64,000 nt of DNA from a virus (Duplodnaviria > Caudoviricetes): positions 1 to 64,000 of the IMG/VR virus record IMGVR_UViG_3300046131_000022, one strand, 5' to 3'. A program made the position numbers and the translations under genes. Of the stretch, positions 3,753 to 38,456 are shown one piece after another; the stretch's first letter is position 1; each line of letters begins with the position of its first letter. The notes under the pieces were generated by a model. It ran no database searches and was not told the origin of the DNA. It was given only the letters and a program-made list of their open reading frames with translations.

Positions 3753-4322
3753 ATGATTGTGTTTATGGCTGAAAAATATCCAAAAATTACTCAAGAAGCT
3801 CTCGAAGCTTCTGCAGAAATTCTTTTAAATTGTTTACTTAAACCTAATTATTTAAAAGAAGCTCCATACAGTTCTTTAATGGTTGCCAAAATTGAAGACA
3901 TTCAAGAAGAATTTGAAGAAAATATTCGTGAAGGTTCTTTCTCTGTTTCAGTTTTGAAAGAAGGTGTTAATGTTGATGCTGACATTGCGGAGCGTTTTTC
4001 AGAAATTAATTCTGGTATTGAAACCAGAAATTCGGAATATCAGGATAAATATGGGATTGTTGTTCGTTTAGAAAAGATTATTTTAAACATGGAAACTTTA
4101 GCCACTAAGGGTAGTAGTGATACTGTAAAAATGACAGCCATGACTAAATTTATGGATTTTCAACAAGAACAAATTAAGATCCTGACTCAATTAACCAACG
4201 TGGCTAAAGCTCAAAAAATTGAATCTTTAACACGAAGATTTTTTCAAGAGATTCGCAAATCTGATCAATTAAAAAATGTTGTTGATCGCTATATTAAATT
4301 ATTAAATTCTTTGGATGATTAA
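3753..4322 (+). CDS. Hypothetical helical protein; possible terminase small subunit (start may be 3768)
   Basis: 189 aa ORF divergent from terL, coupled to primase; all-helical, SDTVKMTA segment loosely TerS-like. Confidence 0.5.
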   Translation: MIVFMAEKYPKITQEALEASAEILLNCLLKPNYLKEAPYSSLMVAKIEDIQEEFEENIREGSFSVSVLKEGVNVDADIAERFSEINSGIETRNSEYQDKYGIVVRLEKIILNMETLATKGSSDTVKMTAMTKFMDFQQEQIKILTQLTNVAKAQKIESLTRRFFQEIRKSDQLKNVVDRYIKLLNSLDD

Positions 4323-4325
4323 GAC

Positions 4326-6998
4326 ATGGCTAACAGTATTTTTAAAGATCACGCTCCTTTTTACTATGCTAAAGGTATGTCAGTTATTCCTTTGCAAGTT
4401 AATTCAAAAATTCCTTTAACTACTGCTTGGTCTGATTTCTCTGATCATCCTGTACCAAAGGAAATTCAACAGCAGTGGCTACATCTACCTGCAGATCACA
4501 ATATTGGTTTAGTTCTTGGTAAACAATCAGGTGTTGGTGTTCTTGATATTGACTATGCCGATGAAAAATTAATTGAGAAAATCCTCAGTATTTTGCCTGA
4601 AGGTTACGACACATGGAAACGTGTGGGTAAAAAAGGCATGGTATTGGCTTTTAAATTTAACCCAAAAGTTCCACGAGCTTTTAAATTAATTTCCCCTGAA
4701 TACGGAACTTTGGTTGAGTACCTTTGCACAGGTCAACAGGTTGTTCTACCTCCTTCTATTCACCCAGACACTAAAAAACCATATACCTCAAACTCCAACC
4801 TTTACGAAGTCTTAGACCAGTTGGTTATGGTCCCAGATGATCTTGAAGATCGTTTGCGTAATTTAATTGAGTTGGAAGGTATTAGTTTAAGCAATAAAGG
4901 TATGGGTTCACTTGTTGAATTTGTACCTGCAGGTTTCCGTGACAGTTCTATCACTCAAAAAAATGGTTTGCTTGCCCATGAGGTTGTGGCAGGTAAAATT
5001 AGTATGCGTCAGGCAGTAGAAATGCTTTATGCCATTAATGATGGTTTTACTGAACAGGTCGAAGGCGACCCTATGGACATGGATAAACATGTTCGCAATC
5101 TGGTTAAATTTATTCGTCAAACTTTAAATAAACGTAAAACAAATTTACCCCATGGTTGGGATGAAGGTTTAACAAAGTCGCAAATTAAAGGTTTTGGTTT
5201 AGACGATATTGAAGCTGAGTGGAGTTATGAGCAGATTTTAGAGTTCTATAACACGGAAGCCGATAATACTCCAGAAAACAAAGCTTTAGATCTTGTTGAC
5301 GATATGTTGTTAAAACTTGCTCAGATTAAAAATTCTGATCCTGTTCGTGAAACTTTTGTAACCAATAAGATTGTTTCTAAGTCTGGTTTGGAAATTAAAA
5401 GTTCTGATTTAAAGTCAAAAATCCGTGGTATTCGTGAAAGCATGAAAACAGCCACTTCAATCGGTGGTGATGAGAACGGAAATGGCTCAACTGAGATTAA
5501 TTTAAATACACACACTGAAGTAGCCTTGGCAGTCAAAGATTTATTACAAGCCATGCACCCAATTTGTGTGGACTCAGGGTTGGTTTATAAATTCATGGGT
5601 TCTCATTGGGTTTTATTTCCAGTTGAAAAAGTAAAGCAATTTATTGCTTTAAATTTCACACACTTAGACATAATGAAACGAAATTCTGATATTGAAGGTG
5701 TCTATAAGCAACTTCTTATTTTATGTGAAAGTGAATTAAATAATTTCAATAAAGCTTTTGTCAATGTTGCCAACGGTATTATTGTTGAAAATCAAGGGGC
5801 TAAACTTGCCAAAGATGATCACAGTTTAAATATTGAGATCCAACGTATTCGTGAACAAATTTTAGCTCACCCGAATGCTCAAATGGGTATTTGGACTGCA
5901 GAAGAAATTGCTTCTGCCCAAGATAGTGCAGTTGAACGTTTTAAGAATAATATGAAATCTCTTTTAACCTTCGTACCTCATCAAAGAGATTACGGGGCAA
6001 CCTATGTTTTACCTTACAGATTTCTTCCTGAAAAGGCAGGTAAAATGCCTTTATTTGAGAAATTCTTATTTGATAGTTGGGGACATAATCCTGATTTTGA
6101 AGATATGAAGAAAGCCCTTCAAGAAGCTCTCTATGTGAGTTTTATGGGTCAGGCAACTAAATACCAACGTGCTTTTTTACTTTTTGGTTTGGCTCGTACA
6201 GGTAAATCAGTTCTTCTTGAAATCATCGGTTCTCTTTTTCCTGATGATGCTAAGGCTTCAATCAGCTTCGATAAGATGAGTGAAAACCGTTTGGTGGTTA
6301 GTCTACATCGAAAAAATATTAATATTGTTGGGGAACTTTCAGAACGGAAACGCATTGAAGGGGATATTTTTAAGTCGATGATTGATGGAACACCTACTTC
6401 TGTTTATCAGTTGTATCGTGAATCTTTCATGATGAAACCAACGTGTGCTCATTGGGCTGCTTCAAACCATTTACCAAAAACTTTTGATACCTCTGAAGGT
6501 TTTACTCGTCGTTGGTTGTTTTTTTATTTTGATCAACAAGTAGATGAAAGTAAGGTTGATGTTGATTTAGCCAAAAAGATTATCTCCCAAGAGCGTGAAG
6601 CAATTTTTGCTTGGGCTTTGGACGCTGGTGTTCGTTTAAGCCAAAATGGTAGTTATACTTTACCAAAATCGCATAAACGTTTAATGGCTACTCTGGCTTT
6701 CCAAACTAACCCTGCTTTATATTTCCTTGAAAAAGACCCTAACATTGAGATCAAGAGTAAATTAAATTTACCTGAAAATGATCATAGCATTTTTGAGTGT
6801 ACTGAGTTGGATTTGCACCTTCAATTTAGACAGTTTATGCGATTAGGTATTGGTAGTCGTCGGGTTGTTGAAATGCAAGAATTTCGTGCCATGTTGGATG
6901 AAATTATTAAATCTCGTGGAATTTCTCGCTTTGGTAAAGAAGGTGATTTGAATCAGTGGTATCGTGGGATTCGTTTAAAGAATCCATTAAATATGTAA
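4326..6998 (+). CDS. Bifunctional Prim-Pol primase / D5-like SF3 helicase
   Basis: N-terminal VIPL..KIP, NIGLVLG, VLDID, QQVVLPPSIHP; C-terminal Walker A GLARTGKS, ASNHLP, GFTRRW. Confidence 0.9.
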   Translation: MANSIFKDHAPFYYAKGMSVIPLQVNSKIPLTTAWSDFSDHPVPKEIQQQWLHLPADHNIGLVLGKQSGVGVLDIDYADEKLIEKILSILPEGYDTWKRVGKKGMVLAFKFNPKVPRAFKLISPEYGTLVEYLCTGQQVVLPPSIHPDTKKPYTSNSNLYEVLDQLVMVPDDLEDRLRNLIELEGISLSNKGMGSLVEFVPAGFRDSSITQKNGLLAHEVVAGKISMRQAVEMLYAINDGFTEQVEGDPMDMDKHVRNLVKFIRQTLNKRKTNLPHGWDEGLTKSQIKGFGLDDIEAEWSYEQILEFYNTEADNTPENKALDLVDDMLLKLAQIKNSDPVRETFVTNKIVSKSGLEIKSSDLKSKIRGIRESMKTATSIGGDENGNGSTEINLNTHTEVALAVKDLLQAMHPICVDSGLVYKFMGSHWVLFPVEKVKQFIALNFTHLDIMKRNSDIEGVYKQLLILCESELNNFNKAFVNVANGIIVENQGAKLAKDDHSLNIEIQRIREQILAHPNAQMGIWTAEEIASAQDSAVERFKNNMKSLLTFVPHQRDYGATYVLPYRFLPEKAGKMPLFEKFLFDSWGHNPDFEDMKKALQEALYVSFMGQATKYQRAFLLFGLARTGKSVLLEIIGSLFPDDAKASISFDKMSENRLVVSLHRKNINIVGELSERKRIEGDIFKSMIDGTPTSVYQLYRESFMMKPTCAHWAASNHLPKTFDTSEGFTRRWLFFYFDQQVDESKVDVDLAKKIISQEREAIFAWALDAGVRLSQNGSYTLPKSHKRLMATLAFQTNPALYFLEKDPNIEIKSKLNLPENDHSIFECTELDLHLQFRQFMRLGIGSRRVVEMQEFRAMLDEIIKSRGISRFGKEGDLNQWYRGIRLKNPLNM

Positions 6999-7039
6999 CC
7001 CATTAAATAGATAGATGGTTAACTTTTAGAGATTTTATT

Positions 7040-7366
7040 ATGTTTAATTATTCAAATTTTAACTATAACCATTTTGCTGACTTAATTAATTCCTGTGTTC
7101 TTCGGGCAAAGGAAGCTGCTAAATTGGTTGATGACTCTGGCACAGTCAATAATGATTGTTTGGTTCTAACTTTTTTATACGGTAAACGCCTAGATCTTTT
7201 TTTGGCTACAGGCTTGCCTATGTCTAAGCGTACAGGTGTTACAGGGCATTTTTGGTTGGACATTCAATTTGGGCAAGCAAATAGAAATGCTGAGTTCTGT
7301 CGGCAGCTCACGGAAATGTTAAGGACTGCAGGTATTATGTCTTCTGTTGTTGCTGTCTCGGACTAG
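7040..7366 (+). CDS. Hypothetical phage protein
   Basis: 108 aa ORF following primase. Confidence 0.65.
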   Translation: MFNYSNFNYNHFADLINSCVLRAKEAAKLVDDSGTVNNDCLVLTFLYGKRLDLFLATGLPMSKRTGVTGHFWLDIQFGQANRNAEFCRQLTEMLRTAGIMSSVVAVSD

Positions 7367-7604
7367 GACTAAGATTTGGTTTAATTTTTTGTTTTGTTAT
7401 TTTGTTGTTTTGTTGTTTTGACCCACTGTTTAGTGGGTTTTTATTTGCCTAGATTTTGTTTGTGGTGGTGGTTATTGTTTGTGACGGTTCTTATCACTGA
7501 CTTTTGCCTTGAAAAATTTTTTACGGAGACCTGGACCCCTGTGTACCTCTCCTACGTCATATTGTGTAAAAAAGCACCCCACCCTTCAATTAAAAACATA
7601 ATAA

Positions 7605-7617
7605 AATCAATAACTTA
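7605..7617 (+). promoter_or_regulatory. IHF consensus box
   Basis: AATCAATAACTTA matches WATCAANNNNTTR; ~30 nt upstream of the next promoter. Confidence 0.5.
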
Positions 7618-7648
7618 CAACTATTTTTAACTTATTTTGTGATAAATG

Positions 7649-7676
7649 TTGTAACGTGTTTTCAGGGGGCTATAAT
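7649..7676 (+). promoter_or_regulatory. Sigma70-like promoter of large ncRNA candidate
   Basis: TTGTAA, 16 nt, perfect TATAAT; predicted start ~7683. Confidence 0.6.
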
Positions 7677-7682
7677 GAGTTC

Positions 7683-8240
7683 ATACCAAGTAAGGGAGCA
7701 ATGTTACAGTCTTAGACAGTGACTTGCACTATTGACTATGTTAGTCGCTAGTGCAAGTCAAGGAAAAGTTATAACCAATTTTCGGTGGTTATTTCACGGA
7801 CTGTTATACCCAAAATTTGGGGTTATGGGGGACGACCACGTAACCGACTCTTTGCAAGTCCCTGACTAGGACATAAAACAAAATGTCAATGAGTAATGCC
7901 ACGGCTTACACGGTTTTGATGAAAATTCAAACAAAAGACCTTAGTAATTCACACTTTGAAATTTACGCCTTGTATCGGTACAGACACCAAACAATTGCAG
8001 AAAATTTCGTGATTAAGGCAAGCATAGCGAAATACTAATGAGTATGTAGCGATAGAGATTAAGTGAACGTAACGAGTTTAACTGATTGCGCTATCCAAAG
8101 GTGATCTAGCCACCGAGAAATAAACCTACAGCTAGTCGATAAACGGAAACGGTTTATTAGCTTAAATCATGAATGACAAGTGTCAGTGTATATGATAGAC
8201 GTTATACATAATGTAAAAAATGAATTTTGACTTGCTAAAT
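7683..8240 (+). ncRNA. Large structured ncRNA candidate (~550 nt, class unknown)
   Basis: No ORF of 60 aa or more between 7630 and 8376; many hairpins incl. perfect 12-bp stem 7720-7731/7749-7760 and GAAA-capped stem 8130-8162; ends approximate. Confidence 0.55.
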
Positions 8241-8264
8241 ATCTAAAAGTGTTATCTAAAAATC

Positions 8265-8330
8265 AGATCAAGGGCATTGGCTTAAATTTAAATTTAATCT
8301 TAACCTTATCTTTGACCTTGCCCTTGATCT
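8265..8330. repeat. 12-bp inverted repeat
   Basis: AGATCAAGGGCA 8265-8276 / TGCCCTTGATCT 8319-8330, between RNA candidate and next ORF. Confidence 0.7.
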
Positions 8331-8375
8331 AACCTTATCATCATCTTTATTTAAAAATCAAACCTTTATAGGAAT

Positions 8376-9041
8376 ATGATCATGATTAAATTTACTCGAA
8401 ACAATGCAACATTCAACATTGACAATGCAGCGTTAGCTACTAAAGCATTGCCATTTGTTAATCAAATCGAAAACATTGGAAAAAATGCAACTGTTTTCAA
8501 ACAAATTATTAAAGCAATCAAAGCGAACAAAACCAATGCGGTTTATGACTTTTTCGTAAATGATGGTTTAGAGAATCAAATCTCTAAAATGGCTCTGGCT
8601 TTAGACACTCAAGAAAAAGCTTTGAAAGCTTGTAAGTATGATAACTTACACCAATATCAGGCAGCGTTTAAAAAGTGGGCAAAAACGCCTAACGCTGAAA
8701 TGGTTCAAGATGATAAAGATAACGTGAAAAAAATCGTTGCCAAAGCTCGAATTTTACGTGAGGGTGTATTCTCTAAATATGCCCACGGTGAAATCTCTTT
8801 GAATGATTTAAAAATCGCTTTTGACTTGACAAGCTCAAAAAATCCAGAAGATGAAAAATCTTTAGTTGAAAATGCGCCTGAAGTTGAAACGGTTGAAGTT
8901 GAAAAAAATCCTGAAATTGACCTTTCAGAATTAACCGCAACTTTGCAAAAATTGGATTTGGATCAAGCTCGTTTGATGATGGAAGTGTTGCAAGGGCATA
9001 TCAATAGCCTTGTGCCAAGCGAGTTGGCAAATGCAAGTTAA
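8376..9041 (+). CDS. Hypothetical protein
   Basis: 221 aa ORF, AGGA SD. Confidence 0.75.
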   Translation: MIMIKFTRNNATFNIDNAALATKALPFVNQIENIGKNATVFKQIIKAIKANKTNAVYDFFVNDGLENQISKMALALDTQEKALKACKYDNLHQYQAAFKKWAKTPNAEMVQDDKDNVKKIVAKARILREGVFSKYAHGEISLNDLKIAFDLTSSKNPEDEKSLVENAPEVETVEVEKNPEIDLSELTATLQKLDLDQARLMMEVLQGHINSLVPSELANAS

Positions 9042-9141: not shown

Positions 9142-9241
9142 TTTAATGCGCCCATTTAGGGCGTTTTTTCCGACCATAAAAAGCTTAATCCGCTTTTTTG
9201 CTTAAATTCAAAATCTCAAACCATTTTTGGAGTGTAATTCT

Positions 9242-10192: not shown

Positions 10193-10668
10193 CCCAAACA
10201 AGTTACACCTTTAAAATCAATAGGTTGTAATGTAATTTGGGTTGTAGAAATTGACCTTTCTGACAATCTATATTCAAAAAAGTGCTAAAGAAGTAATTTT
10301 TTAGCACTAAAATAGATTTATTGGTTAAAAAATGATCAATTTTTCGTGGGAAGTGGCTCTAAATAAGAAAGTTTCCTATATCCAAAAGAGTTACACCAAT
10401 AAAATCAATACGTTGGGAAGTGGTTTAAGGTGGATGAATTGACCATTCTGACAGAAAGTGAAGGCGAAACGGATCTAAAACTTGACTGAGACCAGTTTTT
10501 GAAGATTTTGTAAGTGCTTGATTTTCCTAACTGTAACTCTTTTGGGAGGAGAAAAATAAAAAATTTTTTTTAGATGCGAGGTTGATATAAATTGGTTAAA
10601 AAATATACAAATATATAAATACTATATATAAAAAGAAAAATGAAAACTTTCTACCCAAACAAGTTACA
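10193..10668. repeat. Array of four 15-bp CCCAAA(CA/AG)AGTTACA-type repeats, three paired with IHF boxes (origin or packaging-site candidate)
   Basis: Copies at 10193, 10381, 10532 (inverted), 10654; IHF boxes 10215, 10403, 10511 (inverted); AT-only tract ~10595-10645. Confidence 0.75.
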
Positions 10669-10892
10669 GTATTGAAAAATAACGAAAAGTCCATTTTTGA
10701 CTTCTCAAAACCTGGTCTTTTTCCCCGTCTTTGACCCCATTTTTGACCTTATTTTTGGCTCCGTCTAGGTCAATTTCTCCGAAAAAACGCCTTTCCCAAA
10801 AAGTCAAGCGTTATTTTCAAGAAAAAGCACCTTTGACTCAGTTGTTTTCGTTCCAACCAAAACGTAAACCAACTTTCAAGAACCAGACCACA

Positions 10893-37493: not shown

Positions 37494-37567
37494 AAATGGC
37501 GGTAGCTAAATTGGTTAAAGCAGCCGAGCCATTCGGAAGATTATTGGTTCAAATCCAATCTGCACCG
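37494..37567 (+). pseudogene. Degenerate tRNA-like sequence (CAT in loop)
   Basis: TAGCTAAATTGGTTAAAGC D-arm and ATTGG-TTCAAAT-CCAAT T-arm; acceptor only 4 bp, no U33, no CCA. Confidence 0.6.
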
Positions 37568-37842
37568 TTTGTTTCACCTAAGTAATTTGATTATTTAATA
37601 AATTAATTTAAAAATAATTAATTTAACTGATTCAAGTAGCTTAAATAAACAATCAAAAGTTGTTTATTCAAAGTGAAGAATGACAATAACCTAATAAGTC
37701 GTTAAAAGGTAGTTGGTGACTTAATCACTGTCGCAGAACTGGACCCAAATAAAAGTCTGACTTTTATTTCTGTTGACAAGCTTTGAACCGAGCTTTGATT
37801 GCGTAATACAATCAGAAAGTTTCCTAATCAGTTACTAGGTTC

Positions 37843-37971
37843 AAACATAAGCTTGTAATTTATTGGCAAAATAACTTGGGTAAGACCAAGGGGTACAAAC
37901 GAGTTGCAACTCGCTTGGAGCAGAAAAATCTACAACCATGCCAAGGTTGGTAAATTACAAGACTTATGTTT
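37843..37971 (+). ncRNA. Structured RNA candidate B (~130 nt, pseudoknot)
   Basis: 20-bp closing stem with one bulge; three internal hairpins; TTGGCA pairs with loop TGCCAA. Confidence 0.55.
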
Positions 37972-37973
37972 AT

Positions 37974-38049
37974 TGCTTCATAGCTCAGTTGGTAGAGCAA
38001 CGGACTGTTAATCCGTGGGTCACACGTTCGAACCGTGTTGAAGCAGCCA
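37974..38049 (+). tRNA. tRNA-Asn(GTT)
   Basis: Full cloverleaf, ACGGA-CT-GTT-AA-TCCGT, encoded CCA, 76 nt. Confidence 0.95.
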
Positions 38050-38208
38050 TTTACTTAGAGAAGAAATCTGGAAAGTACGACGGTACGTTAAACAACATAA
38101 ACTAGGACATGAGCGAGGTTCAAACCCTCAACATTTGGTTATGGCGTTCCGAAAACTGCAGATTGTTTGTGTTGAATATTTATTCTCAGATTTCTTCGTC
38201 TAAGTAAA
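38050..38208 (+). ncRNA. Structured RNA candidate C (159-nt rod with T-loop)
   Basis: 21-bp closing stem with one bulge, 10-bp inner stem, GAGG-TTCAAAC-CCTC T-arm; exactly fills the spacer between two tRNAs. Confidence 0.6.
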
Positions 38209-38285
38209 TTTCCTATAGCTCAGTTGGTCAGAGCAGCGGACTCATAATTCGTTGGTCACAGGTTCAAGTCCTGTTGGGGAAACCA
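38209..38285 (+). tRNA. tRNA with CAT anticodon (elongator Met or Ile2)
   Basis: Cloverleaf, GCGGA-CT-CAT-AA-TTCGT, encoded CCA. Confidence 0.9.
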
Positions 38286-38292
38286 CTTAAAA

Positions 38293-38369
38293 GGCTCTGT
38301 AGCTCAGTTGGATAGAGCATCCGCCTTCTAAGCGGATGGTCACAGGTTCAAGTCCTGTCAGGGTCGCCA
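38293..38369 (+). tRNA. tRNA-Arg(TCT)
   Basis: Cloverleaf, TCCGC-CT-TCT-AA-GCGGA, encoded CCA. Confidence 0.95.
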
Positions 38370-38380
38370 TTTTTACTTTT

Positions 38381-38456
38381 GCTCGAATAGCTCAGTTGGT
38401 AGAGCAGTAACCCGATAAGTTATTGGTCACAGGTTCAAGTCCTGTAGGTAGTACCA
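38381..38456 (+). pseudogene. Defective tRNA-Ile(GAT)-like gene
   Basis: Intact D, anticodon and T arms and CCA, but acceptor GCTCGAA/AGGTAGT pairs at only 3 of 7 positions and position 33 is C. Confidence 0.75.

Follow-up and report, generated by a model that had tools for sequence, protein, structure and literature searches.

The stretch of DNA analyzed here (the window) comprises 64,000 nucleotides (nt), the initial 64 kb of the 73-kb IMG/VR viral record IMGVR_UViG_3300046131_000022. The source phage is a siphophage related to the Acinetobacter phages EAb13, Mystique and fJoAci; its primase shares 64-65% identity with those of the A. baumannii siphophages EAb13, fJoAci01/04, TCUP2199 and Mystique. 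About 1 kb without a credible gene separates a 108-amino-acid (aa) open reading frame (ORF; 7040-7366) from a 221-aa ORF (8376-9041). Behind a promoter in this gap, at 7683-8241, lies what is very probably a genuine conserved structured RNA. The RNA and the other parts of its proposed transcription unit are:

7649-7676, plus strand: sigma-70-type promoter, with -35 TTGTAA at 7649-7654, a 16-nt spacer and -10 TATAAT at 7671-7676 (10 of 12 consensus positions).
7683 to about 8241, plus strand: RNA of four domains, about 560 nt and about 130 conserved base pairs.
8242-8375, plus strand: AT-rich 3' tail of the leader, with 11-bp hairpin arms at 8266-8276/8319-8329 and a Shine-Dalgarno sequence AGGAA at 8370-8374.
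8376-9041, plus strand: first ORF of the terminal repeat, encoding a 221-aa, all-helical protein.
9148-9164, plus strand: intrinsic terminator closing the leader-plus-ORF unit, a 6-bp GC-rich stem followed by T6.

Together with its 135-nt tail (GC content is 0.26 at 8200-8399), the RNA appears to form the 5' leader of the first transcription unit in the terminal repeat. A first-pass annotation of the window had pointed out the gap, the promoter and an IHF box upstream, and all three are there: no ORF of at least 60 aa lies between 7631 and 8375, the two promoter hexamers stand as listed, and WATCAANNNNTTR is matched at 7604-7616. From the promoter, the RNA is predicted to start at A7683. A 78-aa frame with a TTG start (7394-7630) lies upstream of the promoter, over repeats.

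Sequences for comparison were reached through the 221-aa protein, which has 109 homologues, all metagenomic. Twelve of these were looked up and led to wastewater contigs that include the upstream DNA; with the IMG/VR loci, the 12 look-ups gave 15 distinct leaders:

The window
L049
Group A: L006, L029, L031, L032, L035
Group B: L007, L037, L038, L050
Group C: L008, L040, L043, L047

Alignment-based searches of IMG/VR returned the same three contigs (primase protein 70-81% identical to that of the window) and nothing further. The 221-aa and 108-aa ORFs, each used singly as a protein query, matched nothing in IMG/VR, and a metagenome scan added two short contigs whose length is insufficient for the leader. 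In all leaders 0.8-1.3 kb without a called gene precede the ORF, except for a 50-aa ORF in L038/L039. The promoter position is conserved in L008 and L050 by scan and in all homologues by eye, and both this position and the start motif CAUACCAAG (or a near match) are common to all leaders whose contig extends that far. Group C retains the IHF-like match, group B has it in imperfect form and EAb13 lacks it. Leader length varies across lineages from about 380 to 700 nt, the cultured Acinetobacter relatives having a shorter leader of about 380 nt.

Folding of 7683-8241 on the plus strand gave a minimum free energy (MFE) of -139.5 kcal/mol against -117.8 +/- 6.2 kcal/mol for dinucleotide shuffles (z -3.5; none of 100 shuffles folded as stably), and the z-scores of the homologues are -4.4 (L006), -7.7 (L008) and -4.0 (L050). 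The minus strand of the same stretch has a z-score of -2.8. Covariation was counted in three alignments made with MAFFT from sequence only, on structures taken from RNAalifold (domains 2-4) or from our own reading (domain 1):

Domain 1 (7703-7806), 10 sequences: 24 pairs, 91.7% paired against 33-42% with partners slid; 11 pairs changed on both sides against a shuffled mean of 7.0, reached by 0 of 500 shuffles.
Domains 2-3 (7804-8008), 6 sequences: 50 pairs, 88.9% paired against 29-42% slid; 24 pairs changed on both sides against a shuffled mean of 9.4, reached by 0 of 500 shuffles.
Domain 4 (8009-8242), 6 sequences: 55 pairs, 95.2% paired against 30-40% slid; 26 pairs changed on both sides against a shuffled mean of 12.0, reached by 0 of 500 shuffles.

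L049 and group B were left out of the domain-1 counts, their MAFFT alignment having been judged misaligned by eye. Taken together, the 129 pairs are 89-95% paired, against 29-42% when partners are slid, and 61 of them changed on both sides, where the slid controls yield at most 7 such pairs and no shuffle among 500 reaches the observed count in any alignment. For domain 4, none of the 500 shuffles reaches the observed value on any of the five measures. One 4-bp helix occurs in four versions (GGUG/CACC, GACG/CGUC, GAUG/CAUC and GCUA/UAGC), and the P3 helix of domain 1 occurs as AACCA/UGGUU, AAUCG/CGAUU and AAUCA/UGAUU. Treated separately, the four close sequences of group B have 118 predicted pairs, 12 of them compensated, and the four of group C have 113, with 14 compensated.

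These figures bear on the rival explanation that the region has no specific function and is a fast-evolving terminal spacer holding chance hairpins, decayed-gene remnants or small unannotated proteins. Similarity between lineages too low for blastn, and a leader whose length nearly doubles between lineages (about 380 to 700 nt), would suit such a spacer. The number of compensated pairs (61 of 129, far above the slid and shuffled controls), the z-scores of -3.5 to -7.7, the lack of a conserved reading frame and the recurrence of the architecture in independent single-sequence folds all argue against it, and we consider it most improbable. No reading frame is conserved between groups (the longest frames are 26-100 aa), and peptide matches across groups span just 12-26 aa in mixed frames on both strands, reflecting nucleotide conservation. 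A blastn ('distant') search of 7367-8375 against 50,697 phage records gave no match; local blastn against the relatives aligned only 7513-7714 and the ORF, with nothing at E 0.01 within 7720-8356. Divergence between the groups is thus beyond the reach of blastn, yet the helices are retained: the leader turns over quickly in sequence and keeps its structure, the primase meanwhile remaining 70-81% identical.

In the paired columns G.U fills 55 cells and A.C 14; several of the G.U pairs do not vary at all. The excess of G.U over A.C, and the fact that matches to the covariance models (CMs) described below fall on the plus strand only, fit an RNA read from the plus strand, which is that of the promoter. 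The conserved plus-strand structure, its lack of coding capacity and its position relative to promoter, ORF and terminator are established by computation. Its parts are as follows:

About 7684-7696 with 7809-7822, plus strand: P0 (tentative), the purine-rich 5' tract paired with sequence after domain 1, in the MFE folds of the window, L006 and L008.
7706-7804, plus strand: domain 1, a three-way junction closed by P1 (7706-7712/7798-7804).
7720-7731/7749-7760, plus strand: P2 of domain 1, with an inner stem 7733-7738/7742-7747.
7771-7777/7786-7792, plus strand: P3 of domain 1, with an outer pair 7768/7795.
7805-7952, plus strand: domain 2, with closing helices 7805-7808/7949-7952 and 7811-7814/7941-7944 and the conserved sequence AAAAGACCUUAG.
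7828-7836/7842-7850 (poor in the window), 7863-7867/7884-7888, 7890-7899/7905-7911 and 7915-7919/7927-7931, plus strand: hairpins of domain 2.
7960-8007, plus strand: domain 3, with helices 7960-7963/8003-8007, 7967-7974/7990-7998 and 7977-7979/7986-7988 and a conserved ACAGAC loop.
8012-8241, plus strand: domain 4, closed by a 14-bp long-range helix 8012-8026/8226-8241.
8051-8054/8092-8095, 8058-8068/8076-8086 (loop GUAACGAG), 8100-8103/8111-8114, 8138-8145/8150-8162 (GAAA loop), 8167-8171/8212-8216, 8173-8176/8181-8184 and 8187-8193/8202-8208, plus strand: the seven inner helices of domain 4.

The three-way junction right after the start, in which P1 (ACAGUCU/GGACUGU) closes two hairpins, is the MFE structure in 11 of the 15 sequences folded singly, and this promoter-proximal domain is the most widely kept architecture. 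Throughout the RNA, loops and junctions keep their sequence while helices drift; domain 4 has a conserved junction motif, GAUUGCRC. P0, which might bury the 5' end of the RNA, forms a duplex that beats shuffles in the window, L049, L031, L035, L043 and L047, and not in group B. A hairpin ACCC...GGGG could also be drawn after P1, but pairing with the 5' tract probably takes its place.

Most of the stems read by eye in the first-pass annotation agree with this structure. Those at 7720-7731/7749-7760 (P2), ATAACCA/TGGTTAT at 7771-7792 (P3) and ACAGTC/GACTGT (P1), as well as GATAG/CTATC, GGTG/CACC, the GAAA-capped stem at 8138-8162 and TGTATA/TATACA, are backed by covariation or homologous position; GGGAC/GTCCC is not among the supported stems, being shared with one relative, L031, only. 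Three others give way to conserved alternatives: 7863-7867/7884-7888 in place of GACAT/ATGTC, 7977-7979/7986-7988 around the ACAGAC loop in place of TGTA-TCGG-TACA, and, for GCCTT/AAGGC, the long-range helix, of which AAGGC is part. The long-range pairing anticipated for 8227-8235 does occur, with 8012-8026 and not with 7753-7761 or 7854-7860 as had been supposed.

In the group C leaders L008 (at 7896-7904 and 7953-7961), L040 and L043, not in L047, ACAGUCUUA occurs twice, as the 5' strand of P1 and as the base of P3. The same leaders carry a second GACUGU about 260 nt downstream, and RNAalifold pairs the 5' strand of P1 with this distant copy; duplication and distant pairing hint at alternative conformations.

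Two CMs delimit the family. CM R1, of domain 1, scores 63-105 bits, and CM R2, of the domain-4 core (8047-8123) and built without L049, detects L049 with E 7.6e-7. A DNA pattern of the core, run in a viral scan, found the L006 contig and one chance match inside a gene, and nothing else. The leaders of group B and EAb13 appear homologous to the window RNA on the basis of position, the shared 5' motif CAUACCAAG and hairpins that look similar by eye, and inspection by eye also suggests that the shorter leader of the cultured relatives is homologous to domains 1 and 4.

Several points temper the case for a single, widely shared RNA. CM R1 misses group B, L049, the cultured Acinetobacter phages including EAb13 and the JWF-like loci L012-L021, and CM R2 misses groups B and C, the EAb13 group of cultured Acinetobacter phages and the JWF-like loci, so that the family as modelled is narrow; domain content varies between lineages. 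At the distant JWF-like loci GC content is high and the ORF maps are uninformative. The alignments hold 6-10 sequences each, from few lineages and phylogenetically clumped. Some circularity remains because the RNAalifold structures derive from the same alignments that were used for the pair counts, the slid controls and the pair count being the measures least prone to it. The start of the RNA, its end and its transcription are themselves predictions from sequence.

The region was compared with the 4227 models of Rfam 15 (among them OLE, raiA, HEARO, 6S, tmRNA, RNase P, pRNA, RNA I and riboswitches), in one scan of the whole window at gathering score and in a more permissive scan (E up to 10) of 7300-8450 (1.15 kb), and no family matched it. 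The best sub-threshold scores, 13-26 bits against gathering scores of 55-100, came from small nucleolar RNA and microRNA models. ROOL (RF03087) and GOLLD (RF01998) gave no match in either scan. The first-pass annotation had offered a choice between a diverged member of these two families and a new class of RNA. As Rfam 15 holds no match, the first option fails, and the second is supported by strong covariation in three independent sub-alignments, the lack of a conserved ORF and z-scores of -3.5 to -7.7 in four lineages. The Rfam 15 matches in the window are five tRNAs, all elsewhere (37498-38445, about 30 kb away), of which one is truncated (38388-38445, model positions 8-63) and one weak (37498-37567, 36 bits).

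The stretch of DNA between RNA and ORF bears on whether the two would be parts of one molecule. No terminator-like site lies there in the window, L006, L008 or L050, and a good terminator stands 3' of the ORF; a leader-plus-ORF unit is favoured for these reasons. No promoter-like site lies between RNA and ORF in L006. Every group has a hairpin right 5' of the ribosome-binding site, the sequences of these hairpins being unlike one another.

The placement of this unit at a genome end derives from the cultured relatives. EAb13, fJoAci04 and fJoAci01 have direct terminal repeats of 2.18-2.24 kb, mapped with PhageTerm by their authors (PMC10508131). The mapped repeat starts of the three share one alignment column, and in a second alignment, which includes the window, the starts of EAb13 and fJoAci01 share the column of window position 7541, inside the motif CGGAGACCTGGACCCCT/GTG (the stroke marks the boundary). 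Because these starts align there, the physical left end of the packaged DNA is predicted by homology at about 7541, the window contig itself being a metagenome assembly. The promoter would therefore lie 108 nt, and the predicted RNA start 142 nt, inside the terminus, and the RNA, lying inside the terminal repeat, would be present at both ends of virion DNA. It is probably the first transcript of the first-entering phage DNA. Early transcription, which the first-pass annotation had proposed, fits the conserved sigma-70-type promoter and the predicted place about 142 nt inside the terminal repeat; that it would be pre-early we infer from this place and from the analogous regions of T5 and T7. 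The features around this end are:

7381-7412 (16-nt unit, two copies) and 7456-7493 (19-nt unit, two copies): short tandem repeats between the terminator below and the genome end.
7420-7439, plus strand: intrinsic terminator of the primase operon, an 8-bp stem followed by a T run.
7513-7640, plus strand: conserved terminus block, with the predicted left boundary of the direct terminal repeat between 7540 and 7541.

Window positions 7513-7714 are 73% identical to L008. The part of the terminus block at 7513-7590 is common to the cultured Acinetobacter phages and contains an A5T6 run, GGAG, the cut position (between 7540 and 7541) and, further downstream, a AAAAAGCNCCCTACCCTT box; this part may be the site recognized when the terminal repeat is generated. 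Each relative has a different short tandem-repeat array, with units of 6-30 nt, between the primase-operon terminator and the predicted boundary (approximately 7838-7935 in L006, 7665-7770 in L007, 1695-1830 in L050 and 7595-7705 in L008), and these lineage-specific arrays may be terminase-binding or concatemer-junction signals. Further into the window, 2.65-3.1 kb from the predicted left end, 10193-10677 holds a 72-nt unit in two copies, 76% alike, and a 24-nt box in three. Given that the terminal repeats of the relatives measure 2.18-2.24 kb, this array may be the right boundary of the repeat, an injection-stop site or an origin.

With modest confidence we favour a cis-acting RNA, one that affects the transcript to which it belongs as the leader of the first (pre-early) unit. 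On this reading, the DNA end at the predicted position 7541 would enter the cell first, and host sigma-70 RNA polymerase would bind at 7649-7676 and initiate near 7683, 142 nt or so into the DNA. Folding would go on during transcription, with the three-way junction of domain 1 forming first and the long-range helix that closes domain 4 last, while the polymerase proceeds into the 221-aa orphan gene and terminates at 9148-9164. In cis, the RNA could protect the untranslated 700-nt leader against Rho and RNases, modify the polymerase that is transcribing it or determine how the first gene is expressed, and the conserved loops and motifs GUAACGAG, GAUUGCRC, AAAAGACCUUAG and ACAGAC would be contact sites for a host or phage factor. 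We lean this way because the RNA is physically continuous with the gene and its most widely kept part is promoter-proximal.

Other observations weigh against a leader acting in cis and bring in the tentative alternative of a stand-alone, trans-acting pre-early RNA effector, released when transcription terminates, or the transcript is processed, at the hairpin preceding the ORF, and acting without translation as the first phage product. Such an RNA might counter a host defence or nuclease as decoy or inhibitor, might bind a host protein as sponge or scaffold, or might assemble with itself into an RNA particle, as ROOL and GOLLD do. In the window, two weak promoter-like sites lie between RNA and ORF (8312-8341 and 8351-8380), and in group C and the EAb13 group the hairpin preceding the ribosome-binding site is followed by a T run and so resembles a terminator; for both reasons the RNA is possibly a separate molecule, and it may also exist on its own. 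A four-domain RNA with sequence-conserved loops exceeds what anti-Rho protection or stability would need, and size and ornateness (about 130 pairs and a long-range closing helix), together with the conservation of loops and junctions over drifting helices, would suit an effector. The gain and loss of domains by lineage, next to a protein that evolves much faster than the primase (25-70% against 70-81% identity), is the pattern expected of arms-race genes, and the predicted site 142 nt from the entering end is equally in keeping with such a role. Against this alternative, RNA and ORF are not separated by a terminator-like site in the window, L006 or L050, nor by an internal promoter-like site in L006. 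A repeated protein-binding motif was not seen by eye, the RNA has no known partner, and it resembles no known RNA. In its boldest form the alternative makes the RNA a 'zeroth gene': a multi-domain RNA acting in trans, made seconds after DNA entry, present in two copies through the terminal repeat, which disarms a host defence or nuclease or captures a host machine before there is any phage protein. It might then self-assemble as a ROOL/GOLLD-like particle, with the variable outer domains as swappable anti-host modules. We regard this form as doubtful.

The AT-rich tail suggests yet another explanation, namely an element of a replication origin, where the structured transcript would prime or open the AT-rich DNA at 8242-8360, or hairpins in single-stranded DNA would load primase or helicase. 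The order of promoter, structured RNA of about 560 nt and the most AT-rich stretch of the region (GC 0.26) is as such an element would have it, the concatemer map puts a large primase-helicase gene directly before it, and the IHF-like box lies upstream. The strand-asymmetric conserved G.U pairs, however, fit RNA better than DNA; no minus-strand promoter-like site was found in 6900-8500 and no RNA I match; and cumulative GC skew tracks gene direction only, with no feature at the region. As a candidate origin, the array of repeats and IHF-like boxes at 10193-10677 looks better. We know of no single-strand initiation signals with long-range helices enclosing 200 nt, as this RNA has. An origin element is therefore an improbable explanation, and the cis-acting leader remains the one that we favour.

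The 221-aa protein encoded behind the RNA belongs to no Pfam or PHROG family. Its AlphaFold2 model (pLDDT 73) has no convincing fold match: the best Foldseek hit in the PDB has E 2.4, with scattered sigma-factor chains at a probability of 0.02-0.04, VIA-align gives a best Z of 4.0, and BFVD returns the protein's own homologue only. Its true start is probably ATG 8382 and not the listed ATG 8376, because the latter is just 1 nt from the Shine-Dalgarno AGGAA and the MIKFTR read from 8382 resembles the MLKFTR of homologues.

On the other side of the terminus lies the primase operon:

3753-4322: ORF of 189 aa.
4326-6998: primase.
7040-7366: ORF of 108 aa.

The 189-aa ORF before the primase matches CBF_beta (PF02312, core binding factor beta) with 27.7 bits, above the Pfam cut-off of 25, which is odd for a phage protein. 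In one 74-kb relative (the contig of protein P0055), an N6/N4 DNA methyltransferase gene directly follows the primase, a case of gene flux in the right-end module. L008 has, on the minus strand at 7310-7519 and between primase operon and genome end, a 69-aa ORF with two CxxC pairs that is zinc-ribbon-like and absent from the window.

A large screen of IMG/VR for conserved structured RNAs (csRNAs) listed 10,006 candidates with motifs of 29-151 nt only (PMC10690425). In the portions of the literature covered, which include papers on EAb13 and its relatives, no RNA is described at this locus, a negative that does not extend to the individual sub-motifs (at most 151 nt) of that catalogue. The RNA would represent a new family among the large structured RNAs of phages, and its genomic role, that of a terminal-repeat leader, would be both new and defined. 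Covariation is unusually clear for so few sequences, and the genomic address is defined and meaningful: if the account given here is true, this would be the first transcript of the first DNA into the cell, inside the terminal repeat. It raises the question whether an RNA, needing no translation, is the earliest weapon of the phage or governs how the genome enters and how early transcription proceeds. EAb13, Mystique and fJoAci01/04, relatives that have been cultured on Acinetobacter baumannii and are candidates for therapy, carry the shorter leader at the same address, and CM R1 and CM R2 can serve as seeds for Rfam-style family curation.

To our knowledge, bacterial and phage RNAs above about 400 nt with conserved intricate folds are rare, amounting to about a dozen classes, and every one so far has proved to be a ribozyme, the core of a ribonucleoprotein or an assembly of RNA that had not been expected. 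Among smaller RNAs at comparable positions, phi29 pRNA (RF00044), about 120-174 nt long, is a component of the packaging motor in protein-primed podophages. The window RNA is like it in being an early non-coding RNA, as predicted, at the extreme left end of a linear phage genome; the pRNA model gave no match. ColE1 RNA II and the origin transcripts of T7 and T4 prime or open DNA at origins and, like the window RNA, combine a promoter-driven structured RNA of about 550 nt with AT-rich DNA following it, near replication genes. In contrast to RNA II, no antisense regulator or Rfam match was found for the window RNA, which runs into a translated gene, and GC skew gives no evidence of an origin.

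Closer in position are the early leader of T7, which runs from the A1 promoter to the RNase III site R0.3, and the pre-early region of T5, whose first-entering, first-expressed genes lie in the direct terminal repeat. In these phages, and by prediction here, promoters for the host polymerase lie on the first DNA to come in, and a long stretch that is not translated precedes the first gene. We know of neither leader as a conserved multi-domain covarying RNA, and the 11-bp hairpin before the window ORF is too short for a classical RNase III site. The put RNAs of HK022 (about 70 nt, two stem-loops) and the nut leaders of lambda are cis-acting antitermination elements just downstream of early promoters. 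They share with the window RNA a folded element within the first 120 nt or so of what would here be an early transcript made by host polymerase, domain 1 starting 23 nt past the predicted start. The likeness to put is one of position alone. The window RNA is about 560 nt long, and its three-way junction is followed by three more domains. Among T7, T5, phi29 pRNA and put/nut, we know of no 560-nt covarying four-domain RNA.

In size and complexity the nearest known RNAs are ROOL and GOLLD, which usually adjoin tRNA genes in phages and prophages of Firmicutes. The window RNA differs from them in its setting, standing at a genome end, behind what would be the first early promoter and before an ORF, with the tRNAs about 30 kb off. 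It is like them in being phage-borne and non-coding, in its range of about 500-800 nt with many helices and multi-way junctions, and in being known from comparative genomics with its function unknown. ROOL and GOLLD form homo-oligomeric RNA-only complexes (PMC12286853).

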